DNA of 64,000 nt from Prorocentrum cordatum (taxonomy: Eukaryota). The position numbers and the translations under genes are program-made. Below the pieces are notes generated by a model. That model did no database searches and was not told where the DNA came from. It saw nothing but the letters and a program-made list of their open reading frames with translations. The stretch is from assembly GCA_963575745.1 (NCBI GenBank), contig CAUYUJ010000298.1:1-64000 (forward strand), given 5' to 3'. Below, in pieces: positions 4,071-63,400 of this stretch; the first letter of the stretch is position 1; every line of letters starts with the position of its first letter.

Positions 4071-4184
4071 AGCAGGCGGCCTGGCTTGCCTGGAAGATGC
4101 CGTACTCGTCGATGGCAGCGATGGCCGCCGCGCCGCTTCCCCGCGGCGCCGACACCCCCTGAGCTCCTGTGGGATCCAGGAGCC

Positions 4185-4386: not shown

Positions 4387-4672
4387 TTTATTATAATTTA
4401 TCTTCAATTTATATATTTGTGTTTATTCTGGTAATTTATTTTTTATAATTTTTCTATATTATATATTTTATTATTATTATTTATAATATTATGTTATTAT
4501 ATTAGAATATAATTATATTTTCGTATTATATTTTTATATTTATTGTCATTTATTTGATTGGTTTATTTAATACGGTTTGATATTTATTTAGTTTTAGTTT
4601 TGTTGTTAATTTTTATTAATAATAAATAAGTTTATGTTTATTTTTATATTTTATATATATTTATATATATAT
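4387..4672. repeat. AT-rich low-complexity tract (degenerate (TA)n expansion) inside an F1 element
   Basis: Nearly all A/T. The flanks (acaaagtt…atgtcaatgctcgg) rejoin to the F1 sequence seen uninterrupted at ~24720-24745. Confidence 0.8.
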
Positions 4673-7600: not shown

Positions 7601-7740
7601 TCATCCTAAGACAGAGAGGCCCTCATAGTCTTTCACAGGTGCGAAACATCAGGTTTCTCAAAATGAATTGTCAAATATCTTTCAAAAATTCGCAAAACCA
7701 CCCAAAACTGGGCGCCGGCGGTAAACCGTCAACCTTGGTT

Positions 7741-35624: not shown

Positions 35625-38030
35625 TTGGCCGACCCGACCAGAAAGGACAATGTTCCCGGAGAGCTCGCTGAGAGCTAAAGGGTTTAAGATTAGAAGCCGG
35701 ACGGTGGTGGTGCCTGCCAGGAGCTCCTCCACGGCGGTCCACAGGCCTCATAGAAACTCCGGCGGCCCGGCAGCGCGTCCGGGGGAGCTTCCGGCAAGCT
35801 TCCACGCGTGCCTGCATGCGTGCAGGCACGCATGGAAGCGTTTCTGGCAGCGCTTCCACTGCGCTCCAGGGAGGCCCCCCAAGGCTCTCCATGAAAGATT
35901 CCCGGAGAGCTCGCTGAGAGCTAAAGGGCTTAAGATTAGAAGCCGGACGGTGGTGGTGCCCGCCAGGAGCTCCTCCACGGCGGTCCACGTTCCCCGCAGC
36001 GGCTCCGGTGACCCGGCAACTGGTCCGGGAGAGCTTCCGGCAAGCTTCCACGCGTGCCTGCACGCGTGCAGGCACGCATGGGGGCGTTTCTGCCGGCGCT
36101 TCGGCAGCGCTGCAGGGGAGCTTCCCAGAGCTCTCCAGGAAAGATTTCCCGTCCCCAAAGGGTTTCTTCGCTCTCCGGGTTTTGGACGCTACCATACCTC
36201 GTAGAGCTCTTCGGCATCGATGAGCTAGAGGAATAACTCGTAGAGCTTCCCTTAGCAAGTTGTTGCTGGAAGCTTAAGAGAAATTCCGGGGCGCTGGAGA
36301 GCTAGTTGGCAGGACAAATCTCGACGGACCTTTTGGTGACTTTTGGTCGGTTGAAAAATTTGTTCTCGAAATTCAACCATTCGTTAGGGCTCTAGTATTT
36401 TTTCCCGTGATATTCGATCTTATTCCCGCTCGCCATCTTGATCTCAGCTCGATCGGGTACCTTTTACTGCCAAAAAGCACACGGGCGGGATCGGCCGTTT
36501 CGAGTCATCTTGATACGCGTTGTCGGTTTTCTCAAGATAACTCGAGTTTCAGGACAGCTACAGAGCTGGTAAGCACAGCTAATCGGTGTCAGAATGATCA
36601 GCCGCGTTCGCCTGTCGAACCCAGAGGTCTGAACTCGGTCTGCTAGCCGAGCTAGGTCCGCAAACCTATTCGTATTATTGGAGTCATCTTGACAGACGCT
36701 CTCGGTTTTCTGTATTTAACTCGAGCTACAGGACAGCTACAGAGCTGATGCGTACAGAATCTGATTCAGAATCATCATTCGCGTTTGTCTGTCCAATCCA
36801 GAGCTCTGAACTCGGTCTGTCGCCCGATCTAGAATCGCGAAACTATTCGTATTGTTCGAGTCATCTTGAGAGATGCTGTCGGTTCTCTGCACTTAACTCG
36901 GGCTGTAGGGGGGCTGCATGGCTGGTAATGACAGGAATCGATTCGGAGACATGAGGCGCGTCCGCCTTTCGAATCCAGAGCTCCGAACTCTGTCTGCTGC
37001 TCGAAGTAGGTCCGCGAAACTATTCGTATTGTTCGAGTTATCCTGAGAGGTGCTGTGTGTTTCCTGCACTTAACTCGGGCTGTAGGGGGGGCTGCAGGGC
37101 TGGTAATCACAGGAATCGATTCAGAGACATCAGACGCGTCCGCCTGTCGCATCGAGAGGTCTGAACTCGGTTTGATACTCGAGCTAGGTTTGCCAAACTA
37201 TTCGTATTGTTCGAGTCATCTTGAGAGGTGCTGTCGATTTACGCACGTAACTCAGGCTGTAGGAGAGCTACAGAGCTCGTACAGAAGACTATCCAGAAGC
37301 ATCGGGGGCGTTCGGCTGTTGCATCCGAAAGGTCTGAAATTGGTTGGGCTGAAAAATTATTTTTTCTGTGTTTTTTTTTTCGACATTATATGTTGTCAGG
37401 AAGCTCTACGAGTCCCCCGGCGGTAACAAGGGTTGACGGTTTACCGCCGGCGCCCAGTTGGCCGACCCGACCAGAAAGGACAATGTTCCCGGAGAGCTCG
37501 CTGAGAGCTAAAGGGCTTAAGATTAGAAGCCGGACGGTGGTGGTGCCTGCCAGGAGCTCCTCCACGGCGGTCCACAGGCCTCATAGAAACTCCGGCGGCC
37601 CGGCAGCGCGTCCGGGGGAGCTTCCGGCAAGCTTCCACGCGTGCCTGCATGCGTGCAGGCACGCATGGAAGCGTTTTTTCTGGCAGCGCTTCCACTGCGC
37701 TCCAGGGAGGCCCCCCAAGGCTCTCCATGAAAGATTCCCGGAGAGCTCGCTGAGAGCTAAAGGGCTCGAAATTAGAAGCCGGACGGTGGTGGTGCCCGCC
37801 AGGAGCTCCTCCACGGCGGTCCACGTTCCCCGCAGCGGCTCCGGTGACCCGGCAACTGGTCCGGGAGAGCTTCCGGCAAGCTTCCACGCGTGCCTGCACG
37901 CGTGCAGGCACGCATGGGAGCGTTTCTGCCAGCGCTTCGGCAGCGCTGCAGGGGAGCTTCTCAGAGCTCTCCAGAAAAGATATCCTGTCCCCAAAGGGTC
38001 TCTTCGCTCTTCGGGTTGGCCGCTACCATC
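34418..38030 (+). repeat. Tandem duplication of a ~1.82-kb composite unit (F2 + F1 fragment + two F3)
   Basis: 34418-~36200 and 36234-~38030 share module order and junctions. Track ORFs 35012..35335 and 36829..37152 translate identically (offset 1817). Confidence 0.9.
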
Positions 38031-38200
38031 CCTCGTAGAGCTCTTCGGCATCGATGAGCTAGAGGTGGAAGCTTACGCTGGAAGCTTTAGAGTGATTCGT
38101 AGAGCTTCCCTCAGCTAGTTGCTGGAAGCCTAAGAGTAATTCCGGCGCGCTGGAGAGCTAGTTTGACAAGAAAAATCTCGACGGAACTTTTGGTGACTTT

Positions 38201-38526
38201 TTCCCGGAGAGCTCGCTGAGAGCTAAAGGGTTTAAGATTAGAAGCACGACGGTGGTGGTGCCCGCCAGCAGCCCATCTCCGCCGGTCCAGAATTCTCGCA
38301 GCAGCTCGTTCGACCCGGCAACGTGTCCGGGAGAGCTTCCGGCAAGCTTCCACGCGTGCCCGCGCGCATGCAGGCACGCGTGGAAGCGTTTTTGGCAGCG
38401 CTTCGGAAGCGCTGCCGGGGAGCCCCCCAGAGCCCCAGAAGAGCTTCATGCGTGCTTCCGTGGGCTTGCCAGAAAGGTTTTCCGGTGTGTGTTCTCTTTG
38501 CTCTCCGGGTTTTGGACGCTATCAAG
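38201..38526 (+). mobile_element. F3 element, full-length (326 bp), inserted in an F2
   Basis: TTCCCGGAGAGCTC…GGACGCTATCAAG. The empty site restores ggtgacttt|tggtcggttg with no TSD. Confidence 0.9.
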
Positions 38527-41199: not shown

Positions 41200-42133
41200 T
41201 AATACCTCGTAGAGCTCTTCGGCATCGATGAGCTAGAGGAATTCCGGCGCGGGGTGGGGCTAGTTGGTCGACCCGGCCAGAAAGGACAAAGTGGTAACTT
41301 TTCTGGGTGGTTTTGCAATTTTTTGAAAGATATGTGACAATTCATTTTGATAAAGCAGATTTTTACTCCGAGCATTGGTATCTTAGCTTTGTTCTCTGAG
41401 CAGCTCTACTATCGAAACACTTGGAGGAACCATCTTCATGTCGACACGAAAAAAAACAATTTTTCCCTTTTTTGAGAAATGTTTCGATAAGCTCTCTCTT
41501 TCGGTTCTGAGCACTCTTACACGTAAAAGGAGCTCTACGAGGTTCCCGGCAGTGGCCAGGTTGACGGTTCACCGCCGGCGCCAGTTCCGGGGCGCTGGAG
41601 AGCTAGTTGGCAAGAAAAATCTCGACCGACCTTTTGGTGAGTTTTGGTCGGTTGAAAATTTTGTTTTCGAAATTCAAGCATTCGTTAGGGCTCTAGTATT
41701 TTTTCCCGTGATATTCGATCTTATTTCTGCTCGCCATCTTGATTTCAGCTCGATCGGGTACCTTTTACTGCCAAAAAGCACTCTGGCGGATCGGCCGTTT
41801 CCAGTTATCTTGATACGCGCTGTCGATATATTGGACTCAACTAGAGATATAGGACATCTACAGAGCTGGTAAGCACAGCTCATCGATTCGGAATGATCCG
41901 GCGCGTTCGTCTGTTGCATCCAGAGGTCTGATCTCGGTCTGCTAGCCGAGCTAGGTTCGCAAACCTATTCGTATTATTCGAGTCATCTTGACAGGTGCTC
42001 TCGATTTTCTGTACTGAACTCGAGCTATAGGACATCTACAGGGCTGACACGTACAGAAATCGATTCAGAATCATCAGGCGCGTTCGTCTGTCGAATCTAG
42101 AGCTCTGAACTCAGTCTGCTGCCCGATCCAGAA

Positions 42134-43359
42134 TAACTCGTAGAGCTTCCCTTAGCAAGTTGTTGCTGGAAGCTTAAGAGTAATTCCGGGGCGCTGGAGA
42201 GCTAGTTGGCAAGAAAAATCTCGACGGAGCTTTTGGTGACTTTTGGTCGGTTGAAAATTTGATTCTTAAGATTTAACCATTTGTTCGAGCTCTAGTATTT
42301 TTTCCCGTGATATTCGATCATATTCCCGCTCGCCATCTTGATCTCAGCTCGCTCGGGCACCTTTTACTGCCAAAAAGCACTCCGGCAGGATCAGCCGTTT
42401 CGAGTTATCTTGATACGCGGTGTCGGTTTTCTCAAGATAACTCGAGCTTCAGGACAGCTACAGAGCTGGTAAGCACAGCTAATCGATCCAGAATGATCAG
42501 GCGCGTTCGTCTGCTGAACCCAGAGGTCTGAACTCGGTCTGCTAGCCGAGCTAGGTCCGCAAACCTATTGGTATTATTCGAGTCATCTTGACAGACGCTC
42601 TCGGTTTTCTGTACTTAACTCGAACTACAGGACAGCTACAGAGCTGATACGTACAGAGTCTGATTCAGAATCATCAGTGGCTGTTGTCAGTTGAATCAGA
42701 GCTCTGAACTCGGTCTGCTGCCCGATCTAGAATCGCGAAACTATTCGTATTGGTCGAGTCATCTTGAGAGATGCTCTCGGTTCTCAGCACTTAACTCGGG
42801 CTGTAAGGGGGGCTGCATGGCTGGTAATCACTGGAATCGATTCGGGGACATCAGGCGCGTCCGCCTTTCGAATCCAGAGCTCTGAACTCGGTCTGCTGCC
42901 CGAACTAGGTCCGCGAAACTATTCGTATTGTTCGAGTTATCCTGAGAGGTGCTGTCGGTTTCCTGCACTTAACTCGGGCTGTAGGGGGGGCTGCAGGGCT
43001 GGTAATCACAGGAATCGATTCAGAGAGATCAGACGCGTCTGTCTGTCGCATGGAGAGGTCTGAACTCGGTCTGATACTCGAGCTAGGTTTGCCAAACTAT
43101 TCGTGTTCTTCGAGTCATCTTGAGAGGTGCTGTCGATTTACGCACGTAACCCGACCTGTAGGAGAGCTACAGAGCTCGTACAGAAGACAATCCAGAAGCA
43201 TCGGGGGCGTTCGGCTGTTGCATCCGAGAGGTCTGAAATTGCTTGGGCTGAAGAAACTAGTTTTTTTCTGTGTAATTCTTTCAGACATTATATGTTGTCA
43301 GGAAGCTCTACGAGTCCCCCGGCGGTAACAAAGGTTGACGGTTTACCGCCGGCGCCCAC
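42134..43359 (+). mobile_element. F2 element, full-length, inserted at A^T inside another F2
   Basis: The empty site restores gatccagaa|tcgcgaaactg, matching the monomer consensus, with no TSD. Confidence 0.9.
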
Positions 43360-46300
43360 TCGCGAAACTGTTCGTATTGTTCGAGTCATCTTGAGAGATG
43401 CTGTCGGTTTTCTGCACTGAACTCGGGCTGTAGGGGGGCTGCAGTGCTGGTGGTGACATCAATCGATTTGGAGACATGAGGCGCGTTCGTGTGTGGAATC
43501 CAGAGCTCGGAACTCGCTCTGCAGCCCGAAATAGGTCTGCGAAACTGTTCGTATTGTTCGAGTCATCCTAAAAGATGCTGTCGGCTTTCTGCACTTAACT
43601 CGGGCTGTAGGGGGGCTGCAGGGCTGGTAATCACAGAAACCGATTCGGAGACATCAGGCGCGTCCGCCTGTTGCATTGAGAGGTCTGATAATCGAGCTAG
43701 ATTCGCGCAACTATTTGTATTGTTCGAGTGATCTTGAGAGCTGCTGTCTGTCGATTTTCGCACGTAACTCGGGCTGTAGGAAAGCTACAGAGCTCGTAGA
43801 GAAGACCATCCAGAAGCATCGGGGGCTGTTCGGCTGTTGCGTCGAGGTCTGAAATCGCTTGGGCTGAAAAACTATACGTTATCTGCAATTTTTTTCGACA
43901 CTATATTTTGTCAGGAAGCTCTACGAGTCTCCCGGCGGTAAGAAAGGTTGACGGTTTACCGCCGGCGCCCAGTTCCGGGGCGCTGGAGAGCTAGTTGGCA
44001 AGAAAAATCTCGACGGACATTTTGAAGACTTTTGGTCGGTTGAAAATTTTGTTCTCAAAATTCAACCATTCGTTAGAGCTCTAGTATTTTTCCCGTGACA
44101 TTCGATCATTTTCCCGCTCGCCATCTTCATTTCAGCTCGATCGGGTAGCTTTTACTGCCAAAAAACACTGCGGCGGGATCGGCCGTTTCGAGTCATCTTG
44201 ATTCGCGCTGTCGGTATACTGAACTTAACTCGAGATATAGGACAGCTACAGAGCTGGTAAGCACACCTCATCAGGCGCGTTCAGCTGTTCCAACCAGAGG
44301 TCTGAACTCGGTCTGCTAGCCGAGCTAGGTCCGCAAACCTATTCGTATTATTCGAGTCATCTTGACAGGCGGCGTTCGGTTGTTGCATACGAGAGGTCTG
44401 AAATTACTTGGGCTGCAGAACTTTTTTTTTGTGTAGTTTTTTTCGACATTATATGTTGTCAGGAAGCTCTACGAGTCCCCCGGCGGTAAGAAAGGTTGAC
44501 GGTTTACCGCCGGCGCCCAGTAACTCGTAGAGCTTCCCTTAGCAAGATATTGCTGGAAGCTTAAGAGCAATACTTCGTAGAGTTCTTCGACATCGATGAG
44601 CTAGAGGAATTCCGGCGCGGGGTGGAGCTAGTTGGGCGACCCGGCCAGACAGGACAAAGTGACAACTTTTGGGGGTTGATATTTGACCATTCATTTTGAG
44701 AAAGCAGATTTTTCGCACCTGCAGACGACTATAATGGCCTCTGCGTCTTAATATGAGCCCTCTAGATGCACTTTTACTATCAAAACACTTGGCGAAACCA
44801 ACTTGATGTCGACATGAAAAAAAACATGTTTTCTCTTTTTCGAGAAATGCTTCCAGAAGCCCTCGCTTTCGATGCTGAGCACTCCTATGCGTGCTACGTG
44901 CTGTACGAGGTCCCCGGCGGTGACCAGGTTGCCGTTTTACCGCCGGCGCCAGTTCCGGGGCGCGGGAGAGCTAGTTGGCAAGAAAAATCTCGACGGACCT
45001 TTTGATGACTTTTGATCGGTTGAAAATTTTGCTCTCGAAATTCTTCGTTAGAGCTCTAGTATTTTTTCCCGTGATATTCGATCTTATTCCCGCTCGCCAT
45101 CTTGATCTGAGCTCGATCGGGTACCTTTTACTGCCAAAAAGCGTCGAGGCGGGATCGGCCGTTTCGGGTCATCTTGTCACGCGCTGCCGGTTTTCTCAAG
45201 ATAACTCGAGTTTCAGGACAGCTACAAAGCTGGTGCGCACAGCTAATCGATTCAGAATGATCAGGCGCGTTCGCCTGTTGAACCGAGAGGTCTGAACTCG
45301 GTCTGCTAGCCGAGCTAGGTCCGCAAACCTATTCGTATTATTCGAGTCATCTTTACAGACGCTCTCGGTTTTCTGTACTTAAGAGCTGATACGTACAGAA
45401 TCTGATTCAGAATCATCAGTGGCTCTGTTGAACTCAGAGCTCTGAACTCGGTCTGCTGCCCGATCTAGAATCGCGAAACTATTCGTATTGTTCGAGTCAT
45501 CTTGAGAGATGCTGTCGGTTCTCTGCACTCAACTCGGTTTGTGGGGGGCCTGGTAATCACTGGAATCGATTCGGAGACATCAGGTGCGTCCGTCTTTCGA
45601 ATCTAAAGCTCCGAACTCTGTCTGCTGCCCGAACTAGGTCCGCGAAACTATTCGTATTGTTCGAGTCATCCTGAGAGGTGCTGTCCGTTTCCTGCACTTA
45701 ACTCGGGCTGTAGGGGGGCTGCAGGGCTGGTAATCACAGGAATCGATTCAGAGACATCAGACGCGTCCGCCTGTCGCATGCAGAGGTCTGAACTCGGTCT
45801 GATACTCGAGCTAGGTTTGCCAGACTATTCGTATTGTTCGGGTCATCGTGAGAGGTGCTGTCGATTTACGCACGTAGCTCGGGCTGTAGAAGAGCTACAG
45901 AGCTCGTACAGAAGACAATCCAGAAGCATCGGGGGCGTTCGGCTGTTACATCGGAGAGGTCTGAAATTGCTTGGGCTGAAAAACTATTTTTTCAGTGTAA
46001 TTTTTTTCGACATTATAGGTTGTCAGGAAGCTCTACGAGTCCCCCGGCGGTAACGAAGGTTGACGGTTTACCGCCGGCGCCCAGTTCCGGCGCGGGGCGG
46101 AGCTAGTTGGTCGACCCGGCCAGAAAGGACAAAGTGGTACCTTTTGGGTGGTTTTGCAATTTTTTCAAAGATATTTTACAATTCATTTTGAGAAAACAGA
46201 TTTTTCGCACCTGTAAACGACTATGAGGGCCTCTCTGTCTTAGTATGAGCTCTGTAGGCGCACTTTTACTATCAAAACACTTGGCGGAACCTTCTTCATG

Positions 46301-49818: not shown

Positions 49819-52800
49819 GAGAATTCATTTTGAGAAAGCAGATTTTTACGCCGAGCATTGGCATGTGAACTTTGTTCCCTGAGCAGCTCAGCTCTCTGGA
49901 GCCAGTTTTAGTATCAGTTGACTTCCGGGAACCGACTGCATCTTCACTCCGAAAATCTCAATTTGACGCTTCTTTAGAAAAGCTGCAAGTTCTTAGCAAG
50001 TTTTTCGTAGAGCTCTTCGTGGTCGATGAGCAAAGAGGAATTCCGGCGCGGGGTGGAGCTAGTTGGCTGACCCGACCAAAAGAGACAATGTGACACATTT
50101 GGGTCGGTTTTCCTAAGATTTGAAAGATATTTGACAATTCATTTTGAGTAAGCAGATTTTCACGCCGATTATCGGCATATCAACTTTATTCCCTGAGCAG
50201 CTCAGCTCTCTAGAGCCAGTTTTAGTATCGGAAAATTAGGAGCAATCAACATGAAATCAACACGAACAAATGTGAATTCGTTTTTTGTTTTTTCTTCTTT
50301 TTTTTTGTGTTGTTTTTCTCTTCTTCTGGAAATACCCCGAGAAGCTCCCTGCTTCGATCCTGGGCACTCTTACGAGTGCAAGGAGCTCTACGAGGTTCCC
50401 GGCGGTGACCAGGTTGACGGTTCACCGCCGGCGCCAGTTGTGCCTCGTAGAGCTCTTCGGCATCGATGAGCTAGAGGAATTCCGGCGCGGAGTGGAGCTA
50501 GTACCTCGTAGAGCTGTCGGCATCGATGAGCTAGAGGAATTCCGGCGCGGGGTGGAGCTAGTAACTCGTAGAGCTTCCCCCAGCAAGTTATTGCTGGAAG
50601 CTCAAGAATAACTCGTAGAGCTTCCCTCAGCAAGTTATTGCTGGAACTCGTAGAGCTCCCCTTAGCTAGTTGCTGGAAGCTTAAGAGTAATTCCGGCGCG
50701 CTGGAGAGCTAGTTGGCAAGAAAAATCTCGACAGACCTTTTGCTGACTTTTGGTCGTTTGAAAATACCTCGCATAGCTCTTCGACATCGATGAGCTAGAG
50801 GAATTCCAGCGCGGGGTGGAGCTAGTCCCTCGTAGAGCTCTTCGGCATCGAAGAGCTAGAAGAATTCCGGCGCGGGCTGGAGCTAGTTGGCCCACCCGGC
50901 CGGGGCGGACAATGTGACAACTTTTGGGTGATGTTGCGAATATTTCAAAGATATTTGACCATTTATTTTGAGAAAGCAGATGTTTCGCACCTGTGGACGA
51001 CTATGAGGGCCTCTGCGTCTTAATATGAGCTCTCTAGGTGCACTTTTACGATCAAAACACTTGACGAAACCAACTTTATGTCGACCTGAAAAACATCATG
51101 TTTTCTCTTTTTCGAGAAATGCTTCGAGAAGCCCTCACTTTTGATGCTGAGCACTCTTTGGCGTGCAAGGAGCTCTACGAGGTTCCGGCGGTGACCAGGT
51201 TGACGGTTCACCGCCGGCGCCAGTTGGTAGACCCAGCCAGAAAGGACAAAGTGGTGACTTTGGGTTGGTTTTGCTAAGATTTGAGAGATATTTCACAATT
51301 CATTCTGAGAAACCAGATTTTTCGCACCTGTAGTGGGTTATGCCGCGCTTGCCAGTACAATGTTTAGGTCCGTAGGTGCAGTATTACTATTATCCAAACA
51401 CGTGGCGGAACCGACGTTGGATAAAAACAGAAAAACATGTTTTTTCGAGTTTTTCGTTTCTCGCTCCAGAAGCTTTCTGCAAGTGTTCCGACGATCGCCG
51501 TGGAAGAGAAGAGCTCTACGAGCTTCCCGGCGGTGACCAGGTTGAGGGTTCACCGCCGGCGCCAGTTTTGTTTTCGAAATTCAACAATTCGTTTGAGCTC
51601 TAGTATTGCTTCTGACCATATTCGATCTTATTCCCGCTCGTCATCTTAACCTCAGCTCGATCGGGTAAATATTTCTGCAAAAAAGCGTCGCGGCGGGATC
51701 GGCTGTTTCGAGTCATCTTGATACGCGTTGTCGGTATTTTGTATTCAACTCGAGCTGCAGGGCAGCTAAAGAGCTCATACTCACAGAAATCGATTGCCAG
51801 TCATCAGGCGCGTTCGTCTGTTCCATCCAGAGGTCTGAACTCGGTCTGCTGCCCGAGCTAGGTTCGCGAAGCTATTTGTATTGTTCGAGTCATCTTGAGA
51901 GGTGCTGTCAGTTTTCTGCACTTAACTCGGGCTGTAGGGGGGCTACAGGGCTCGTGCTCACAGGAATCGATTCAGAGACATCAGCCGCGTCTGCGCGCCA
52001 AATCCAGAGCTCAGACCTCGATGTGCTGCCCGAGCTGGGTTTGCAAAACTGTTCGTATTCGTCGAGTCATCTTGAGAGGTGCTGTCCGTTTTCTGCTGTC
52101 AACTCGAGCTCTGAGGGGGCTGCAGGGCTGGTTATTACTGGAATCGATTCGGAGAAATCAGTTGCGTCCGTCTGTCACATCGAGAGCTCTGAACTCGGTG
52201 TGCTGCCCGAGCTAGGTCCGCGAAACTATTCGTATTGTTCGAGTCATCTTCAGAGGTGCTGTCGGTTTGGGCTGTAAGGGGGCTGCAGGGCTGGTAATCA
52301 CAGGAATCGATCCAGAGACATCAGGCGCGTCCGCCAGTTGCATTCAGAGGTCTGAACTCGGTCTGATACTCGAGCTACTTACGCGAAACTATTTGTATTG
52401 TTCGAGTGATCTTGAGAGGTGCTGTCGATTTTTGCACGTAACTCGGGCTGTAGGAGAGCTGCGGAGCTCGTTCGCACAGAAAACGATCCAGAAGCATGAG
52501 GGGCGTTCGGCTGTTGCATCGAGAGGTCTGAAATCGCATGGGCTGAAACTATTCGTTCTCAGCAATTCTTTTTACATTATATATGGTCAGGAAGCTCTAC
52601 GAGTCCCCCGGCGGTAAGGAAGGTTGACGGTTTACCGCCGGCGCCCAGTTCGGGGCGCTGGAGAGCTAGTTGGCAGGAAAAATCTCGACGGACCTTTTGC
52701 TGACTCTTGGTCGGTTGAAAATTCTGTTCTCGAAACTCCTCAATTCGTTTGAGATCTAGTATTTTTTCCCGTGGTATTCGATCTTATTCCCGCTCGCCAT

Positions 52801-55800
52801 CTTGATCTCAGCTCGATCGGGTATCTTTTACTGCCAAAAAGCACACTGGCGGGATCGGCCGTTTCGAGTTATCTTCATACGCGTTGTCGGTATTTTTGTG
52901 CTTAACTCGAGCTGTAGGGCAGCTACAGAGCTGGTAAGCACACCTATTCCATTGAGAATCATCAGGCGCGTTCGTCTGTTGAATCCAAAGGTCTGAACTC
53001 GGTCTGCTAGCCGAGCTAGGCCCGCAAACCTATTCGTATTATTCGAGTCATCTTGACAGACGCTCTCGGTTTTCTGTACTCAACTCGAGCTATATAACAG
53101 CTACAGAGCTGATACTTACAGAAACTGATTCAGAATGGTCAGTCGCGCTCGTCTGTTGAATGGAGAGCTCTCAACTCGGTCTGCTGCCCGATCTAGAATC
53201 GCAAAACTATTCGTATTGCTCGAGTCAGCTTGAGAGGTGCTGTCGGGTCTCTGTATTCAACTCGGGCTGCAGTGCTGGCAGTCACAGGGATCGATTTCAA
53301 AACATCAGGCGCGTCCGCCTGTCGAACCCAGAGCTCGGAACTCGGTCTGCTGCCCGAACTAGGTCCGCAAAACTATTCGTACTGTTCAAGTCATCCTGAG
53401 AGGTGCTGTTGGTTTTCTACACTCAACTCGGGCTGCAGAGGGGCTGCAGGGCTGGTAATCACAGGAATCGATTCGGAGACATCAGACGCGCCCATCTGTC
53501 GCATTCAGAGGTCTGGAATCGGTCTGATACTCGAGCTAGGTTTGCCAAACTATTCGTATTGTTCGATTCATCTTAGAGGTGCTGTCGATTTACGCACGTT
53601 ACTCGGGCTGAAGGAGGGCTACAGAGCTCGTACATCCAAAAGCATCGGGGGCGTTCGGCTGTTGCATCGAGAGGTCTGAAATCGCTTGGGCTGAAAAATT
53701 AGTCGTTCTCAACAATTTTTTCTCACATTATATATTGCCGGGAAGCTCTACGAGCCCCCCGGCGGTAAGAAAGGTTGACGGTTTACCGCCGGCGCCCAGT
53801 AACTCGTAGAGCTTCCCTTAGCAAGTTATTGCTGGAAGCTTAAGAGTAATTCCGGAGCGCTGGAGAGCTAGTTGGCAAGAATAATCTCGACGGACCTTTT
53901 GGTGACTTTTGGTCGGTTAAAAATAACTCGTAGAGCTTCCCTTAGCTAGTTGTTAGAGACTTAAGAGTAATTCCGGCGCGCTGGAGAGCTAGTTGGCAAT
54001 CAAAATCTAGACGGACCTTTTGGTGATTTTTGGTCGGTTGAAAATTTTGTGCTCGAAATAACTCGTAGAGCTTCCCTTAGCAAGTTAATGCTCGAAGCTT
54101 AAGAGTAATTCCGGAGCGCTGGAGAGCTAGTTGGCAAGAAAAATCTCGACGGACCTTTTGGTGACTTTTGGTCGGTTGAAAATAACTCGTAGAGCTTCCC
54201 TTAGCTAGTTGCTGGAAGCTTAAGAGTAATTCCGGCGCGCTGGAGAGCTAGTTGGCAAGAAAAATCTCGACGGACCTTTTGGTGACTTTAGGTCGGTTGA
54301 AACTTTTGTTCTCGAAATTCAACAATTCGTTTGAGTTCTAGTATTCTTTCTGACCATATTCGATCTTATTCCCGCTCGCCTTCTTAATCTCAGCTCGATC
54401 GGGTAAATATTTCTGCAAAAAAGCATCGCGGCGGGATCGGCTCTTTCGAGTCATCTTGAAACGCGTTGTCGCTATTTTGCACTTAACTCGAGCTGTAGGG
54501 CAGCTACAGAGCTCATTCTTACAGGAATCGATTGCAAATCATCAGGCGCGTTCGTCTGTCCCATCTAGAGGTCTGAACTCGGTCTGCTGCCCAAGCTAGG
54601 TCCGTAAAACTATTCGTGTTGTTCGCGTCATCTTGAGAGGTGCTGTCAGTTTTCTGCACTTAACTCGGGCTGTAGGGTTGCAACAGGGCTCGTACTGACA
54701 GGAATCGATTCGGAGACATCAGGCGCGTCCGCCTGCCGAATCCAGAGCTCAGAGCTCGGTGTGCTGCCCGAGCTAGGTTTGTATTCGTGGAGTCATCTTC
54801 AGAGCTGCTCTCCGTTTTCTGCACTTAACTCGAGCTGTAAGGGGGCTGCAGGGCTGGTAATCACTGGAATCGATTCGGAGACATCAGTCGCGTCCAGCTG
54901 TCGCATTCAGAGCCCTGAACTCGGCCTGCTGCCTCCGCGAAACTATTCGTATTGTTCGAGTCATCTTCAGAGGTGCTGTCGATTTTCTGCACTTAACTCG
55001 GGCTGTAAGGGGGCTGCAGGGCTGGTAATCACAGGAATCGATTCGGAGACATCAGGCGCGTCCGCCTGTTGCATTCAGATGTCTGAACTCGGTCTGGTAC
55101 TCGAGCTAGATTCGCGAGACTATTTGTATTGTTCGAGTGATCTTGAGAGGTGCTGCCGATTTTCGCACGTAACTCGGGCTGTAGGAGAGCTACGGAGCTC
55201 GTGCGCACAGAAAACAATCCAGAAGCATGAGGAAGTTTGGCTGTTGCATCGAGAGGTCTGAAATCGTGTAGGCTGAAAAACTATTCGTTCTCTGCAGTTT
55301 TTTTTCGACATTATATATGGTCAGGAAGCTCTACGAGTCCCCCGGCGGTAAGGAAGGTTGACGGTTTACCGCGGGCGCCCAGTGTCGTTCCCGAAATTCA
55401 ACAATTCGTTTGAGCTCTAGTAACTCGTAGAGCTTCCCTTAGCAAGTTATTGCTGGAAGCTTAACAGTAGTTCCGGGGCGCTGGAGAGCTAGTTGGCAAG
55501 AAACATATCGACGGACCTTCTTGGTGACTTTTGGTCGGTTGAAAATTTTGTTTTCGAAATTCAACAATTCGTTTGAGCTCGAGTATTTTTTCCCATGATA
55601 TTCGATCTTATTACCGCTCGCCATCTCGATCTCGCCTCGATCGGGTATCTTTTACTGCCAAAAAGCACACGGGCGGGATCGGCCTTTTCAAGTCATCTTG
55701 ACACGAGATGACGGTTTTCTGAACATAACTCGAGCTTTAGGACAGCTACAGAGCTGGTGAGCACAGCTAATCGGTTCAGAATGATCAGGCGCGGTCGCCT

Positions 55801-58800
55801 GTTGAATCCAGGTCTGAACTCGGTCTGCTAGCCGAGCTAGGTCCGCAAACCTATTCGTATTATTCGAGTCATCTTGACAGACGCTCTCGATTTTCTGTAC
55901 TTCACTCGAGCAACAGGACAGCTACAGAGCTGATAGGACAGAAACCGAGTCAGAATCATCAGTGGCAGTTGTCTGTTGAATCCGGAGCTGCACTCGGTCT
56001 GCTGCCCGATCTAGAATCGCGAAACCGTTCGTATTGTTCGAGTCATCTTGAGAAGTGCTCTCGGTCTTCTGCACTCAACTCGGGCTGAGGGGGGCTACAG
56101 TGCTGGTGGTCACAAGAATCGATTTGAAGACATCAGGATCGTCCGTCTGTCGAATCCAGAGCTCGGAACTCGGTCTGCTGCCCGAACTAGAATCGCGAAA
56201 CTATTGTATGTCATCCTGAGAGGCGCTCTCTGTTTTTTGTGTACTTAACTGGGGCTGTAGGGGGGGTTACAGTGCTGGTCACAGGAATCGATTCGCAGGC
56301 ATCAGATGCGTCCGCCTGTCGCATTCAGAGGGCTGAACTCGGTTTGATACTCGAGCTGGGTTTCCAACCTATTCGTTTTGTAGAGTCATCTTGAGAGGTG
56401 CTGTCGGTTTCCGCCCGTAACTCAAGGAGAGCTACAGAGCTCGTAAACAAGACAATCCAAAAGCATAGGGGGCGTTCGGCTGTTGGATCGAGAGGTCTGA
56501 AATCGCTTGGGCTGAAAAACGGTTCGTTCTCTGCATTTTTTCCCCCATTATATATTGTTAGGAAGCTCTACGAGTCCCCCGGAGGTAAGAAAGGTTGACG
56601 GTTTACCGCCGGCGCCCAGTATCTTTTCTGACCATATTCGATCTTATTCCCGCTCGCCTTCTTAATCTCAGCTCGATCGGGTAAATATTTCTGCAAAAAA
56701 GCATCGCGGCGGGATCGGATGTTTCGAGTCATCTTGATACGCGTTGTCGGTATTTTGTACTTAACTCGAGCTGTAGGGCAGCTACAGAGCTCATTCTCAC
56801 AGAAATCGATTGCAAATCATCAGGCGCGTTCGTCTGTTCCATCTAGAGGTCTGAACTCGGTCTGCTGCCAGAGCTAGGTTCGCGAAGCTATTCGTGTTGT
56901 TGGAGTCATCTTGAGAGGTGCTGACAGTTTTCTGCACTTAACTCGGGCTGTAGGGGGGCTACAGGGCTCGTGCTCACAGAAATCGATTCGGAGACATCAG
57001 GCGCGTCCGCCTGCCGAATACAGAGCTCGGAACTCGGTGTGCTGCCCGACCTAGGTTCGCAAAACTATTCGTATTCGTCGAGTCATCTTGAGAGGTGCTG
57101 TCCGTTTTCTGCACTTAACTCGAGCTGTAAGGGGGCTGCAGGGCTGGTAATCACTGGAATCGATTCGGAGACATCAGTCGCGTCCAGCTGTCGCATTCAG
57201 AGCCCTGAACTCGGCCTGCTGCCGGAGCTAGATCCGCGAAAATATTCGTATTGTTCGAGTCATCTTCAGAGGTGCTGTCGATTTTCTGCACTTAACTCGG
57301 GCTGTAAGGGGGCTGCAGGGCTGGTAATCACAGGAATCGGTTCGGAGACATCAGGCGCGTCCGCCTGTTGCATTCAGATGTCTGAACTCGGTCTGATACT
57401 CGAGCTAGATTCGCGAAACTATTTGTATTGTTCGAGTGATCTCGAGAGGTGCTGTCGATTTTCGCACGTAACTCGGGCTGTAGGAGAGCAGCGGAGCTCG
57501 TGCGCACAGAAAACGATCCAGAAGCATGAGGGGCGTTTGGCTGTTGCATCGAGAGGTCTGAAATCGTTTAGGCTGAAAAACTATTCGTTCTCTGCAATTT
57601 TGTTCGACATTATATATGCTAAGGAAGCTCTACGAGTCCCCCGACGGTAAGGAAGGTTGACGGTTTACCGCCGGCGCCCAGTTCCTCAATTCGTTTGAGC
57701 TCTAGTATTTTTTCCCGTGATATTCGATCTATTCCCGCTCGCCGTCTTGATATCAGCTCGATCGGGTACCTTTTACTGCCATAAAGCACACTGGCGGGAT
57801 CGGCCGTTTCGAGTCATCTTGATACGCGTTGTCGGTATTTTCTACTTAACTCGAGCTGTAGGGGAGCTACAGAGCTGGTAAGCACACCTATTCCATTCAG
57901 AATCATCAGGCGCGTTCGTCTGTTGCATCTAGAGGTCTGAACTCGGTCTGCTAGTCGAGCTAGGTCCGTAAACCTATTCGTATTATTCGAGTCATCTTGA
58001 CAGACGCTCTCGGTTTTCTGTACTTATCTCGAGCTATATAACAGCTACAGAGCTGATAATTACAGAAACCGATTCATAATGATCATTCGTGTTCGTCTGT
58101 TGAATGCAGAGCTCTCAACTCGGTCTGCTGCCCGATCTAGAATCGCGAAACTGTTCGTATTGTTCGAGTCAGCTTGAGAGGTACCGTTGGGTCTCTGTGC
58201 TCAACCCGGGCTGTGGGGGGGCCACAGTGCTGGCAGTTACAGGAATCGATTTGAAGACATCAGGCGCGTTCGCCTGTCGAATCCAGAGCTCGGAACTCGG
58301 TCTGCTGCTCGAACTAGGTCCGCAAAACTATTCGTATTGTTCGAGTCATCCTGAGAGGTGCTGTCGGTTCTCTGCACTCAACTCGGGCTGTAGAGGGCTG
58401 CAGGGCTGGTAATCACAGGAATCGATTCGGAGATATCAGACGCGACCGCCTGTCGCGTTCAGAGGTCTGAAATTATTCGTATTGTTCGATTCATCTTGAG
58501 AGGTGCTGTCGATTTACGCATGTTACTCGGGCTCTACGAGGGCTACGGAGCTCGTAAAGAAGACAATCCAGAAGCATCGGGGGCGTTCGGCTGTTGCATC
58601 GAGAGGTCTGAAATCGCTTGGGCTGAACAATTATTCGTTCTCAACAGTTTTTTCACATTATATATTGTCAGGAAGCTCTACGAGTCCCCCGGCGGTAAGA
58701 AAGGTTGACGGTTTACCGCCGGCGCCCAGTTGGACCACCCGACCAGAAGAGACAATGTGGCAACTTTGGGGTTGGTTTTTCCCGGAGAGCTCTCTGAGAG

Positions 58801-59130
58801 CAAGAGGGTTTTAGATTAGAAGCCAGACAGTGGTGGTGCCCGCCAGCAGCCCACCCCCGCCGCTCCACGATCCCCGCAGCAGATCGCCCGTGCCGGCAGC
58901 GGGTTCGGGGGCGCTTCCAGCACGCGCCCACGCGTGCCCTGCGCGCGCGCAGGCACGCGTGGAAGCGTTTCTCTGGCAGCGCTTCAGAAGCGCTTCTGGT
59001 GAGCTCCCGAGAGCCCTCCAGGGAAGATTTCCCGTTCCGATTCCGAAGGTCTCTTCGCTCTGCAGGTTTTAGACGCTACCAAGTAACTTGTTGAGCTTCC
59101 ATTAGCTAGTTGCTGGAAGCTTACGAGTAA

Positions 59131-59352
59131 TACCTCGTAGACCTCTTCGGCATCGATGAGCTAGAGGAATACCTTGTAGAGCTCTTCGGCATCGTTGAGC
59201 TAGGGGAATTCCGGCGCGGGGTGGAGCTAGTACCTCGTAGAGCTCTTCGTTATCGATGAGCTAGAGGAATTCCGGCGCGGGGTGGAGCTAGTACCTCGTA
59301 GAGCTTTTCGTCATCGATGAGCTAGAGGAATTCCGGCGCGGGGTGGAGCTAG
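59131..59352 (+). repeat. Stack of F1 5' heads (61-bp period)
   Basis: Heads start at 59131 (truncated), 59170, 59231 and 59292. Each complete head ends GGTGGAGCTAG. Confidence 0.9.
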
Positions 59353-60024
59353 TTGGCCCACCCGGCTGGGGCGGACAAATTGGTGACTTTTGGTCGGTTT
59401 TGCGAAAATTTGAAAGATATTTAAAAATTCATTTTGAGAAAGCAGATTTTTGCGCGTCTCAGTGGCATGTAAACTCCTCTCTGACAGCAGCTCAGCTCTC
59501 CCGATGTATTTTCTTGTGAGTTGACTTCCGGGAACTGAGCGAATGTGAACATCGAAAAAATCAAAAGTAAAGATTTTCGAAAAATCTCTATTTCTTTACT
59601 CTACTTCGATTCTCAGCACTCTTTCCAGTGTGAGGAGCTCCACGAGGTTCCCGGCGGTGACTAGGTTGATGGTTCACCGCCGGCGCCAGTTGGTCGACCC
59701 GACCAGAAAGGACAAAGTGGTGACTTTGGGTCGGTTTTGCTCAGATTTGAAAGATATTTGATAATTCATTTTCAAAAAACAGAATTTTTACGCCGAGCAT
59801 TGGCATATATACTTTGTTCGCTCAGCAGCTCAGCTCTCTAGAGCCAGTTTTAGTATTAGTTGACTTCCGGGGACCGACTTCTTGACTCCAACAATGTTAA
59901 TTTTACGTTTTTCTAGAAAAGCTCCCAGAAGCTCTCCGCTTCGATCCTGAGCTTACTTACGGGTGCAAGGAGCTCTACGAGGTTCCCGGCGGTGACCAGG
60001 TTGACGGTTCACCGCCGGCGCCAG

Positions 60025-60423
60025 TACCTCGTAGAGCTCTTCGGCATCGATGAGCTAGAGGAATTCCGGCGCGGGGTGGAGCTAGTTGGACCACCCGATC
60101 AAAAGAGACAGTGTGACAACTTCGGGTCGGTTTTCCTAAGATTTGGGAGATATTTGACAATTGATTTTGAGAAACCAGATTTTTCGCACCTGTAAACGAC
60201 TATGAGAGTCTCTGCGTCGAAATGTGAGCTCTGTAGGCGCACATTTACTATCAAAACACTTGGGGCAACCATCTTCATGTCGACATGACAAAAAATCAAT
60301 GTTGGATGTTTCGAGAAATGCCTCCAAAAGCTCTCTCTCCCAACTCTGAGCTCTCTCATGAGTGAAAAGAGCTCTACGAGGTTCCTGGCGGTGACCGGGT
60401 TGACGGTTCACGGCCGGCGCCAG
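60025..60423 (+). mobile_element. F1 element, full-length (399 bp), placed directly after the CCAG end of another F1
   Basis: Left junction …ggcgccag|tacctcgtag and right junction …ggcgccag|ttggccgaacc. Confidence 0.85.
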
Positions 60424-63400
60424 TTGGCCGAACCGGCCTTAAGAGACAAAGTGGTGACTTTGGGTCGGTTCTGCTAAGATTGATAAATATTTGACAATTC
60501 ATTTTAAGAAACCAGATTTTTCTCACGTGTAGTGGGTTATGCCTCGGCTGCCAGTTAAATTCTCATGTCGGTAGCTGCAATATTACTACCAGAAGACTTG
60601 CATGAACAGACTTTGGATGAAAACCGAAAAATCGTGTTTTTCGAGTTTCTCTGCTCTCGCTTCAGAAGCTTCCTTCATGTGCTCCGAGGAGCGCTGTGCA
60701 AGAAAAGAGCTCTACGAGGTGCCCGGCGATAACTTGGTTGACGGTAAACCGCCGGTTCCCCCTCCGGCGCGGGGTGGAGCTCGTAAGTCGTAGAGCTTCT
60801 CTGGGCAAATTGCTCGAACCTTAAAAGTAATTCCGGCGCGCTGCAGAGCTAGTAACTCGTAAAGCTTCTTTGAGCTAGTTGCTGGAAGCTTAAGAAAATA
60901 CCTCGTAGAGCTTTTCGGCATCGATGAGCTCGAGGAATTCCGGCGCGGGGTGGAGCTAGTACCTCGTTGAGCTCTTCGGCATCGATGAGCCGGAGGAATT
61001 CCGGCGCGGGGTGGAGCTAGTTCGCCGACCCGACCAGAAAGGACAATCTGATAACTTTTAGGTGGTTTTGCGAATATTTGAAAGATATTTGTCCATTCAT
61101 TTTGAGAAACCAGATTTTTCGCATCTGTAGACGACTATCAGGGCCTCTGCGTCTTGATATGAGCTCCCCAGGCGCACTTTACTATCAAAACACTTGGCGG
61201 AACCAACTTCGTGTCGACATCAAAATCATGAATTTTGATTCCTCCGAGAAATGATTTCAGAAGCTCTATCTTCCGACTCTGAGCACTCTTATTCGTGAAA
61301 AGAGCTCCGCGAGGTTCCTGGCGGTGACCAGGTTGACGGTTCACCGCTGGCGCCAGTACCTCGTAGAGCTCTTCAATCTCGATGAGCTGGAGGAATTCCG
61401 GCGCGGGGTGGAGCTGTACCTCGTAGAGCTCGTCGGCATCGATGAGCCAGAGGAATTCCGGCGCGGGGTGGAGCTTGCTGGTCGAGCCGACCAGAAAGGA
61501 CAATGTGGCAACTTTTGGTCGGTTTTCCGAATACCTCGTGGAGCTCTTCGGCAACGATGAGCTGGAGCAATTCCGCGCGGGGTGGAGCCAACTCTGGGTC
61601 GGTTTTGCTAAGATTTGAAATATATTTGACAATTCAGTTTGAGAAAGCAGATTTTCAGCACCTGTGAACGATTATGAGGGCCTCTGCGTCTTAATATGAG
61701 CTCTGTAGGCGCATATTTACCATCAAAACACTTGGCGGAACCAACTTCATATCGACATGAATAAAAACCAACTTTGCCTTTTTCGCGAAATGCTTCCAGA
61801 AGCTCTCTCTGTCGATTCTAAGCACTCTCACGCGTGGAAGGAGCTCTACGAGGTTCCCGGCGGTGACCAGGTTGACGGTTCACCGCCGGTGCCAATATTT
61901 GAAAGATATTTGACCATTTATTTTGAGAAAGCGGATTTTTCGCACCTGTAAAAGATTATGAGAGCCTCTGCGTCTTAATATGAGCTCTCTTGGCGCACTT
62001 TTACTACTGAAACACTTGGACCAACCTACTTCATTTCGACATGAAAAAAATGTTCAATTTTTCAAGAAATGCCTCCAGAAGCTCTCTTTTTGGACTCTGA
62101 GCTCTCGGGGAGCTCTACAGGGTTCCCGGCAGTGACCAGGTTGACGGTTCACCGCCGGCGCCAGTTGGTTGACCCGATCAGAAGGGACAAACTGATAACT
62201 TTTGGGTGGTTTTGCGAAAATTTGAAAGATATTTGACCATTTATTTCAAGAAAGCAGAATTTTACGCGTAGCATTAGTATCTAAACTTTATTCTGAAAGC
62301 AGATCAGCTCTCTGCAGAAAGTTTTACAATTCGAAAATGAGCGGGAACCGACGTCGGAGTTACATCGAAAAATAGAAAGTTGACGTTTTTCGAGAAAGGC
62401 CTGGAGAAACTGTCTGCTTCGATTCTGAGCACGGTCCACGAAACGAAGATGCAAAATTTGAAAAACAGATTTTTCGATATTTTTCTTTCACGCTTGAGAA
62501 AGCTTCTTTCGTGTGCTTCGAGCAGCGCCGCGCGAGAACAGAGCTCTACGAGGCTCCCGGCGGTTACCTGGTTGACGGTTTACCGCCGGATCCAGTTGGC
62601 CGACCCGACCAGAAGAGACAATGTGGCATTTTTGGGTCGGTTTTGCTAATATTTGAAAGATATTTGACCATTCATTTTGAAAAAGCAGATTTTTACGCCG
62701 ATTATTTTTCTGCTTTCAATCTAAGCACTCTTACGCGTGGAAAGAGCTCTACGAGGTTCCCGGCGGTGACCAGGTTGACGGTTCACCGCCGGCGCCAGCG
62801 CCTCGTAGAGCTCTTCGGCATCGATGAGCTGGAGGAATTCCGGCGCGGGGTGGAGCTGGTACCTCGTAGAGCTTTTCGACATCGATGAGCTAGAGGAATT
62901 CCGGCGCGGGGAGCTAGTTGATCGACCCGGCCAGAAAGGACAATGTGGCAACTTTGGGTCGTGAGAGCTCTGTAGGCGCACTTTTACTTTCGAAACACTT
63001 GGCGGAACCAACTTTATTTTGAGATGGAAAAAACTCAATGTTCAATTTTTTTCGAAAAATGCTTCCAGAAGCTCTCTCTTTCGGCCCTGAGCACTCTCAC
63101 GCGTGAAAGGAGCTCTACGAGGCTCCCGGCGGTGACCAGGTTGACGGTTCACCGCCGGTGCCAGTTGGCGGACCCGGCCTTAAGAGACAAAGTGGTGACT
63201 TTGGGTCGGTTTTGCTTCGATTTAAAAGATATTTGACCATTCATTTTGAGAGACCAGATTTTTCGCACCTGTAGTTGGTTATGCCGCGTCTGCCAGTCAA
63301 ATTCTCAGGCCCGTCTGTGCAGTATTACTATCAAAACACTTGGAACCGACTTGGATAAAAACAGAAAGACGTTTTTTTTTTGTTTCTCGATTTTTTCGTT

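Follow-up and report, generated by a model that had tools for sequence, protein, structure and literature searches.

Small non-coding elements with Helitron-like termini are repeatedly nested in copies of their own families in a 64-kb stretch of Prorocentrum cordatum DNA

Introduction

Near the right end of a 64,000-nt stretch of DNA from Prorocentrum cordatum (assembly GCA_963575745.1, contig CAUYUJ010000298.1, positions 1 to 64,000; the whole stretch is called the window below), short 5' modules stand one behind another, a series of longer bodies follows them, and the two halves of one further 5' module enclose the series. The question that this locus raises is how such an order came about. 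A sequence-only reading of the block (59084-60781) had proposed that elements insert into their own 5' head at CTAG^T, where ^ marks the point of insertion, and that the order of heads and bodies is the last-in-first-out order of serial self-insertion. We followed up this proposal across the window, and the answer is well supported: small non-coding elements are repeatedly inserted into copies of their own families. The termini of these elements, whose class the sequence-only reading had not recognised, probably place them in a group of Helitron-like rolling-circle transposons, for which self-insertion near the 5' end has been considered before. Published descriptions are cited here from passages of the papers named.

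Results

A split head encloses a balanced series of heads and bodies

We mapped the focal block from the nucleotide sequence and from BLAST searches with nine reference modules taken from the same 64 kb; the nine modules account for 49,890 of the 64,000 bases of the window. They belong to at least two related element families, F1 and F2, built on one plan. An F1 element consists of a 61-nt head, made up of a 39-nt hairpin (P) and a 22-nt module (Q) ending GAGCTAG, and a body of about 337 bp; the F1 bodies form four subfamilies that are 70-75% mutually alike. An F2 element consists of a 72-nt head (P', 50 nt, and Q', 22 nt) and a 1128-bp body with a central 177-bp tandem repeat, present in 1.8-4.8 copies according to Tandem Repeats Finder (TRF); F1 is without a central repeat.

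The sequence, the BLAST map and TRF all bear out the coordinates and the order that the sequence-only reading had given for the split head, the three complete heads, the bodies, the full F1 and the head remainder (Table 1). TRF independently reports a 61-nt period at 59170-59353 (3.0 copies, 94%). The left half of the split head, H0, folds as a hairpin, like intact P. When the two halves are joined, they agree with the intact head at 60025-60085 at 57 of 61 positions, and together with the P' module upstream they are 86-87% identical to two uninterrupted P'-P-Q paralogues, at 60853-60959 and 44521-44631. The remainder of H0 terminates in CTCG, where CTAG is usual.

Written as brackets, with H for a complete head and B for a body, the content between the halves of H0 reads H H H B B H B B, which is a balanced string. 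The stack parser removed 59292-59689, 59231-60024, 60025-60423 and 59170-60760, in this order, and left P (59131-59169) beside Q (60763-60781); four complete elements are thereby peeled and an intact head remains, in agreement with the last-in-first-out order claimed for the block. The element made of H4 and B3 was peeled in the context Q^body, and the H1 element, peeled last, in the context P^Q. Of the 70 possible orders of four heads and four bodies, 14 are balanced, and the focal block alone is therefore weak evidence. The weight of the case for nesting lies in the split head and in the other precisely closed nests of the window.

The 3' end of the outer body, B4, is CCGCCGGTTCCCCC instead of the usual CGCCAG. 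Two subfamily-4 bodies, 33612-33949 and 60424-60760, have the 3' tails CCGCCGGATCCCAG and CCGCCGGTTCCCCC, respectively, against the usual CCGCCGGCGCCAG.

The sequence-only reading had also pointed to mirror-image stacks on the minus arm, near 24500-25680. Such a stack is real at 24509-25306, where the BLAST map places bodies at 24509-24846 and 24847-25184 and heads at 25185-25245 and 25246-25306; TRF finds the 61-nt period at 25184-25306 and at 25553-25677.

Precisely closed nests occur across the window

The de-nesting routine removes a contiguous complete head and body, closes the gap, merges flanks with continuing consensus coordinates and repeats the cycle. Filled sites were judged against the consensus of the host copy, using paralogues within the window. 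In all, 26 complete elements were peeled, or 27 when the head tolerances were loosened, and in 15 of the 26 removals the host was re-formed: six at Q^body, one at P^Q, one at P'/Q' and seven inside a body. In all seven body-internal cases the host consensus is taken up again no more than 8 nt further on, and the target is not duplicated. These inserts begin 5' at TA(A/C)CTCG and end 3', to within one base, at ...GCGCC(C)AG, and their flanks, for example GAAAA/.../TTTTG, CGAAA/.../TTCCTC and CTCTAG/.../TATC, carry no duplication.

The nests reach a depth of up to three layers. In the second nest of Table 1, the complete F2 that splits an F2 head (50645-52648) has its own body split, between q48 and q50, by a block of head, head, body and body at 50765-51565. 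The flanks of this block, GGTCGTTTGAAAA and TTTTGTTTTCGAAATTC, together give uninterrupted F2 sequence with no base gained or lost, and its junctions are exact (GAAAA/TACCTCG...CGCCAG/TTTTG). In the third nest, the inner host E3 holds two complete F2 elements, E4 (54183-55382) and E5 (55421-56619), and the hosts again resume without target duplication. The F1 at 44571-44952 was missed by the parser because its body aligns only from q64.

Table 1. Modules of the focal block and nested insertions elsewhere in the window
Feature	Coordinates	Strand	Remarks
Solo P'-type 5' hairpin module (F2-type head half)	59084-59130	+	84% to the 50-nt P' reference; adjoins the split head on its upstream side
H0, left half: 39-nt P hairpin of an F1 head	59131-59169	+	cut after GAGGAA; 92% to P; split H0 has about 3 mismatches
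H1, complete 61-nt head	59170-59230	+	head of the outer element by the stack parse; pairs with body 60424-60760; 3 mismatches to consensus
H2, complete head	59231-59291	+	pairs with body 59690-60024; 2 mismatches to consensus
H3, complete head	59292-59352	+	innermost; contiguous with body 59353-59689; 2 mismatches; parser context Q^body
B1, body, subfamily 1	59353-59689	+	body of the innermost element; 3' region with subterminal inverted repeat, hairpin and CGCCAG
B2, body, subfamily 2	59690-60024	+	closes H2
Complete F1: H4 (head) and B3 (body, subfamily 3)	60025-60085 (H4); 60086-60423 (B3)	+	between the end of B2 and the outer body; H4 has 0 mismatches to consensus
B4, body, subfamily 4	60424-60760	+	closes H1; atypical 3' tail CCGCCGGTTCCCCC
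H0, right half: remainder of the 22-nt Q module	60761-60781	+	60763-60781 equals Q positions 2-20 at 100%
Mirror stack	24509-25306	-	in element orientation: head, head, body (subfamily 3), body (subfamily 2)
Second nest	50609-53799	+	F2 head split at P'(1-38)/Q'(4-22) by the complete F2 50645-52648
Third nest, F2 elements	53924-58729	+	E2 (1-64 ... 69-1128) holds E3 (1-48 ... 54-89 ... 86-1128)
Complete F2 in the 177-bp repeat region (q517/523) of F2 41610-43972	42134-43358	+	
Minus-strand F2 in the 3' region (q1050/1057) of a plus-strand F2	23183-24398	-	only nest of opposite orientation
F1 between P' (44521-44570) and Q' (44953-44974) of an F2	44571-44952	+	read by hand
F1 inside an F1 body at position 49	61532-61894		

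Insertions favour one orientation and few sites

Twenty insertions have sequence of a family host on both sides (19 parser events and the insertion at 44571), and 19 of the 20 share the orientation of the host. For F1 hosts, 8 of 11 insertions lie at the single CTAG^T, which is one among about 40 R^T sites (R, A or G) in a copy of ~400 bp (binomial 2e-11); the remaining three are at GAGGAA^TT, after P and at body position 49. For F2 hosts, 7 of 9 fall in the first 161 of 1200 nt (2e-5), and the positions from the 5' end are about 50, 120 (three times), 136, 161, 589 and 1122. The sites other than CTAG^T comprise GAGGAA^TT or GAGTAA^TT in the head, GAAAA^TTTT and CGAAA^TT about 50-65 nt into the body, one mid-body insertion and one in the 3' region. 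CTAG^T, which the sequence-only reading had named as the insertion site, is thus the commonest site in F1 hosts but not the sole one. The same reading had suggested that the CCAG^T end of each element offers a similar target; insertion there is inseparable from re-use of the outer CTAG^T as target.

The elements have paired termini and hairpins at both ends

Elements of both families begin TA(A/C)CTCGTAGAGCT, and in both the first 14-15 nt recur, as their reverse complement, in a subterminal position at the 3' end. The inverted-repeat pairs covary by family, ...ACCTCGTAGAGCTC pairing with GAGCTCTACGAGGT in F1 and ...AACTCGTAGAGCTTCC with GGAAGCTCTACGAGT in F2. The distance from the 3' repeat to the 3' terminus is fixed, at 42 nt in 17 F1 copies and at 44 nt in 24 F2 copies, and within it a GC-rich hairpin is followed by CGCCAG (F1) or CGCCCAG (F2). 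The 3' stem of F1, CCGGCGGTGAC...GTTCACCGCCGG, lies 6 nt from the element end; it folds at -17.9 kcal/mol (z -2.2), the values given by the 3' hairpin of B2 (59690-60024). At the 5' end, P' (50 nt) folds with a z of -5.2, none of 200 shuffles being as stable, and P (39 nt) with a z of -2.3. The single F2 3' region that was folded did no better than shuffles (z +0.4) and keeps a 7-bp stem of the GGCGGTAA/TTACCGC type.

We found no Rep or helicase match (Helitron_like_N, PIF1) in the 51 open frames scanned of the 98 of at least 110 aa; the only family match in the scanned frames was to a reverse transcriptase/endonuclease of long interspersed nuclear element (LINE) type, outside the elements. 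Rfam and tRNA scans of the window gave no matches, and exact-pattern scans of metagenome contigs for the head-head junction and for the Q module gave 0 loci each.

Other accounts of the order

Four other explanations of the block were weighed against serial self-insertion. A composite already nested at another place, or a chimeric element bearing several 5' ends, might have been copied whole, from its leftmost 5' end as far as a 3' end downstream, and inserted once into the head at 59169/59170, which we regard as possible though rather unlikely. Nesting leaves the outermost termini intact, which should keep composites mobile, and a head-head-body-body series does form one precisely bounded block inside an F2 (50765-51565). 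A subfamily-3 body followed by a subfamily-4 body is met three times (50887/51224, 60086/60424 and 62962/63165), the surplus of heads in the window (36 versus 25) fits chimeric excision, and Chellapan et al. 2016 (PMC5148889) proposed, in the passages drawn on here, the same for multiple 5' termini. The three pairs are, however, not one composite: the B3 body at 50887 is 87-90% identical to other B3 bodies and that at 60086 at most 81% identical to any copy. Moreover, the first composite would still require nested insertion, so this account concerns the place of nesting and not its occurrence. A freer form of assembly, in which heads and bodies are independent cassettes bounded by ..AG^T nick sites and joined in any order, with the bracket match a coincidence, is in our judgement improbable; the same low standing goes to the route by which they would be joined, either transposase-mediated strand exchange or the separate insertion of solo heads and headless bodies. 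Solo heads, solo P or P' modules and Q-first units do exist, the R^T form is found at every module boundary, and two contigs of one public run (X1) join a body 3' end to Q and skip P (60024 to 60064). Yet the number of bodies keeps pace with that of the heads before them: exactly two bodies follow four of the five evaluable double heads (25306, 50765, 61357 and 62801; the fifth, 60899, is followed by one), and the triple head is balanced within the split head. Adjacent bodies are preceded by an equal number of complete heads except at 4849-5231 and at 16254-16925, where only a partial head stands before two bodies. Body-interrupted hosts also resume at the correct coordinate, which free shuffling does not predict.

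Separate expansion of a 61-bp minisatellite (the heads) and a satellite of about 337 bp (the bodies) by slippage or unequal crossing-over, with no transposition, is the least credible of the four. TRF reports 61-nt arrays at 88-96% identity, and tandem duplication is present elsewhere in the window (53800-54318 and 34418-38201). Adjacent bodies, however, are 70-74% alike and belong to different subfamilies: B1 and B2 are 70.2% alike, and their nearest relatives are at 16589-16925 (83.1%) and 24509-24846 (88.2%), respectively. The nearest relatives of B3 and B4 are both distant, that of B4 being 33612-33949 (81.1%), and in 23 bodies a single pair of adjacent bodies are mutual nearest relatives (46107/46564, 95.3%). 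Eight adjacent head pairs show a mean of 5.5 differences versus 5.1 for the 398 other pairs (Mann-Whitney p = 0.50); clustering of the heads as simple tandem duplicates, which would have told against the sequence-only reading, is thus not seen. Tandem duplication therefore fails, because adjacent bodies and adjacent heads are not closest relatives, and neither the split head nor the insertions inside bodies, with their intact termini, can be produced in that way. Only slightly less far-fetched is the idea that the order is an artefact of assembly from mis-joined repeats. The families have a summed word depth of 10^3-10^5 in public runs, there are many alternative joints (15 among those listed and 167 more), both to be expected of a huge repeat family, and the long-range order rests on one assembly, the public contigs being only 58-153 nt long, which also counts against our own reading. 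Random mis-joins, though, would break and not make 15 coordinate-exact last-in-first-out closures. When Logan contigs of four runs (X1, X8, X2 and X3) were placed on 58700-61400, an exact contig of 94 nt, reaching 58 nt to one side and 36 nt to the other, bridged the junction between the B4 tail and the head remainder at 60760/60761 (X1 record 8, spanning 60703-60796 with 0 differences); this run may be the source of the assembly and is not independent support. It was the only junction bridged with at least 31 nt on both sides, and the P-P, head-body and body-body junctions were unbridged among 32 of 22,873 contig pieces.

In the search of public runs the best share was 0.25, and marine and freshwater metagenome runs gave small shares. 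The head and 3'-end modules have a summed word depth of 10^4-10^5 in the two runs labelled with the organism and of 10^2-10^4 in the two labelled as metagenomes. F1 and F2 are extremely abundant wherever the host organism or its relatives were sequenced.

Observations that do not fit or that limit the reading

Several observations weigh against serial self-insertion as a full account of the window. The split head H0 has no body of its own downstream; more heads come next, and the stack is still open at the end of the window, 64000. Heads outnumber bodies window-wide (36 head motifs versus 25 F1 3' ends at no more than two mismatches), and with the unmatched heads this contradicts the matching head and body counts that had been expected from the block. 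Heads or half-heads without a closing body lie at 50443-50561, 60899-60959, 59084-59130 and 60784-60895, and many F2 units of the minus arm open with Q', without P', directly after the previous 3' end. Excision of the Fusarium type, which starts at the leftmost 5' end and stops at the first 3' end, would be a source of extra 5' ends, and closure of nests at P'^Q' would be a source of Q'-first units. Local tandem duplication has also taken place, with a 259-bp period at 53800-54318 (94%) and a 1.8-kb unit at 34418-38201 (94.8%). The insertion rule is ambiguous, as the first T of the element could be the target's and the rule could be R^T or T^T/T^A; the right flank begins with T at most junctions tabulated, and T^T (most), T^A (the CTAG^TAT site) or A^T/G^T all fit. 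No RepHel gene was found in the window among the open frames scanned, and the class of the transposase is read from DNA structure alone.

The expected order of ages, with inner copies younger, was not seen. The outer F2 of the third nest, E2, lies 9.6%/6.0% (5'/3') from the consensus, versus 14.8%/8.9% for the inner E3. Divergence from the window consensus, for bodies and for the 5' and 3' segments of F2, tracks subfamily and not age, and E3 is a distinct subfamily. The head mismatches of the focal block (Table 1) run in the expected direction, in tiny numbers, and in nests outside the block the counts have no consistent trend. The host E3 and its insert E4 are 93% alike and most other F2 pairs listed are 76-91% alike, which is a hint of local copying. 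A variant at head position 20 (G versus T or TT), tried as a label for pairing heads with bodies, occurs in about 9 of 41 heads and shows no consistent tie to body subfamily in the outer pairs; it was rejected.

Some of the arrays named above have further features of their own. P' modules form stacks, for example at 50562-50690, 25314-25527 and 31279-31731. About eight F2-variant units of ~1.06 kb stand head to tail on the minus strand at 9981-18000; most are Q'-only, without the P' hairpin, and their body is cut at about q829 and has an F1-like 3' end. The 259-bp period at 53800-54318 (2.0 copies) consists of two F2 heads, joined in each case to 48-64 nt of body, and the first of four heads (53800-53922) has no closing body half downstream. 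The duplicated 1.8-kb segment at 34418-38201 consists of P, a complete F2, a body start and a GC-rich repeat; because this is a segmental duplication, one nested insertion appears twice there and does not stand for two events.

Surroundings in the window

Nearly all elements are on the minus strand to the left, and on the plus strand to the right, of a strand switch near 31700-33550, so that their 5' ends face the centre; the centre itself (about 31700-33550) is GC-rich (61%) and uncovered by the modules. A palindromic duplication of the two arms was considered and rejected, as there is no collinear inverted match beyond single elements.

A third type of unit is found at 58730-59083, 35625-36194, 37458-38030, 25681-26293 and 32092-32656. 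It consists of about 30-50 nt of an F1-like body start and one or two copies of a GC-rich repeat of ~246-290 bp, and it ends GCTACCAAG. The 3' inverted repeat and the hairpin that are usual in the other units are missing from it, and its CCAAG^T end is often followed by heads.

At the left end, an open reading frame of LINE type (3-2456, minus strand, continuing to about 4184) runs off the window and has a reverse-transcriptase match (E 5e-12) and a weak match to the endonuclease/exonuclease/phosphatase family; it marks the source as eukaryotic, and an Atlas look-up of the protein gave a mixture of eukaryotic phyla. Upstream of it lies a 575-aa open frame (2460-4184) with no Pfam match, adjoined by an F1 body at 4205-4391. 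An F1 body is interrupted between consensus positions 122 and 118 by a 274-bp AT-rich segment with short TA-rich tandem repeats (4392-4665), which is unrelated to the Helitron-like families. About 2 kb at 7737-9700 are outside the modules and hold several tandem repeats of 12-18 bp and 69 bp (8590-8998) and, on the minus strand at 8253-9413, an open frame of 387 aa with no Pfam match; a 174-bp repeat at 99% identity occupies 9704-10047.

Discussion

A mechanism for the nests may be proposed as follows. A RepHel transposase encoded elsewhere would act in trans, nick the 5' end of an element and peel one strand as far as the 3' signal, and the resulting single-stranded circular intermediate would integrate at a nick in the target. 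As the nests show, new copies enter resident F1 and F2 copies without target duplication, nearly always in the orientation of the host and favouring a few sites in its first ~150 nt, with the head/body junction CTAG^TT (GGAGCTAG^TT) as the main site. An insertion at this junction leaves the outer head on the left and the outer body on the right; repeated insertions there therefore build stacks of heads and then stacks of bodies, in last-in-first-out order. The focal nest (59131-60781) is accordingly read as a split head around an outer element, and inside the latter lie a two-layer nest and one simple element.

The bias might come from a transposase that recognises either the hairpin at resident 5' ends or the motif ...GAGCTAG^T, which resembles a terminus. 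As the targets adjoin the 5' hairpin and the main one shares ..AG^T with the 3' end of the element, the simplest reading would be an attraction of the transposase to the 5' ends of resident copies or to terminus-like motifs. Each insertion would supply a new target, and the field could grow on itself. True homing would go further, the transposase reading the resident 5' hairpin together with ...GAGCTAG^TT and integrating strand-specifically, with self-feeding arrays of tens of kb in a safe haven as the outcome; we put this forward tentatively, as an idea that may well prove wrong.

The target choice of Helitron-like elements is usually given as a bare dinucleotide, and their local arrays are loosely ascribed to missed termination or "local propagation". 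If homing is true, the large Helitron-derived repeat fields reported from heterochromatin or subtelomeres of marine invertebrates would owe their growth to it. The surviving outer halves make the order of events directly readable, so that the self-insertion hypothesis framed for Fusarium Helitron2 becomes countable here, and they mark out a concrete, testable path from a transposon to a satellite-like field. The stacks also mislead repeat annotators, which would report a 61-bp minisatellite and a separate 337-bp repeat.

We consider the window, with good though not full confidence, to be a field of non-autonomous rolling-circle elements of Helitron-like group 2 (Helitron2/Helentron; DINE-1/HINE-like) with mutual nesting. 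By their DNA termini, repeats and hairpins F1 and F2 look like members of this group: they have subterminal inverted repeats, a 3' stem-loop, a 5' hairpin and no target-site duplication, and F2 also has the central tandem repeats (177 bp) of HINE/DINE-1. Descriptions of HINE/DINE-1, Helitron2 and group-2 Helitron-like elements (HLE2) give subterminal inverted repeats, a short 5' inverted repeat, a 3' palindrome and non-coding sequence (PMC4067079, PMC7492417, PMC5148889), and passages of the HELIANO paper and of a Paramecium paper agree with this feature set. The endonuclease domain that defines Helentrons belongs to the autonomous partner, and F1 and F2 are known here from their termini. A cut-and-paste element of the foldback type or a miniature inverted-repeat transposable element was rejected, with the 3' repeat 42 or 44 nt internal and no duplication at any precise insertion. 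A canonical Helitron (HLE1), with 5' TC, 3' CTRR and no terminal inverted repeats, was likewise rejected against the 5' TA(A/C)C, the 3' CCAG or CCCAG and the inverted repeats found here.

F1 and F2 share with HINE/DINE-1 elements (Thomas et al. 2014, PMC4067079; oyster Cg_HINE, PMC7492417) the subterminal inverted repeats, the 5' hairpin, the 3' palindrome, the lack of target duplication, the non-coding sequence and the very high copy number, and the central repeat is satellite-sized in both (177 bp here and, in the passages available, about 160-170 bp in Cg_HINE). Unlike in the passages describing those elements, the left-flank microsatellite is absent here, the TRF list of the window holding no microsatellite inside the elements or in the left flank, and the junctions read equally as R^T or T^T. 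Those passages also describe neither a 22-nt Q with the end GAGCTAG nor a strong preference for insertion into the 5' region of the element itself, and the terms 'nested' and 'inserted into' are absent from the oyster paper. Canonical Helitrons, as described in the passages cited, likewise have rolling-circle-type ends without target duplication, with insertions readable between A (or G) and T. Heads here end in CTAG, which agrees with the CTRR of HLE1 3' ends, but CTAG is here only a head-internal end, and the 5' hairpin has no counterpart in the HLE1 description. Tandem and adjacent insertions are known from Helitrons of bat, maize and silkworm (PMC4067079).

Among arrays, the subtelomeric ones of Hydractinia (Kon et al. 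2025, PMC11934779) are comparable in scale and character to this field of ~400-bp F1 elements and 177-bp repeats, a likeness drawn from description: they are local arrays of a Helitron-like unit of ~372 bp and variable length, associated with a minisatellite of ~150 bp, and the two together make up a quarter of the genome. Unlike for the window, nesting or site preference is not described for them in the passages drawn on. McGurk and Barbash (bioRxiv 10.1101/158386) describe, in the part available, transposon self-insertion as a route to tandem repeats, as here, but for other transposon classes and in Drosophila.

The nearest precedent is Helitron2 of Fusarium oxysporum, FoHeli1-5 (Chellapan et al. 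2016, PMC5148889), which in the passages drawn on shares the asymmetric terminal inverted repeats, the 3' one 20-40 bp from the end, the hairpins at both termini and the ambiguous terminal T. Fusarium copies repeat the first 31, 65, 73 or 85 nt of the 5' end, which was explained there by insertion of the element into itself close to the 5' end, and then by excision that begins at the leftmost 5' end and runs as far as the first 3' end. The idea of self-insertion in this region is thus not new for the class. The passages report only extra 5' ends and one nested case for Fusarium, with the nesting step hypothetical, whereas here the outer halves survive, the nests close in order through up to three layers, and the elements are short, non-autonomous and gathered in fields of tens of kb. 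In the open-access text that we searched and read in part, we found no description of site-preferential, orientation-matched nesting with surviving outer halves, and what is new here is a probable HLE2-type non-autonomous family with unusually clear, countable self-targeting.

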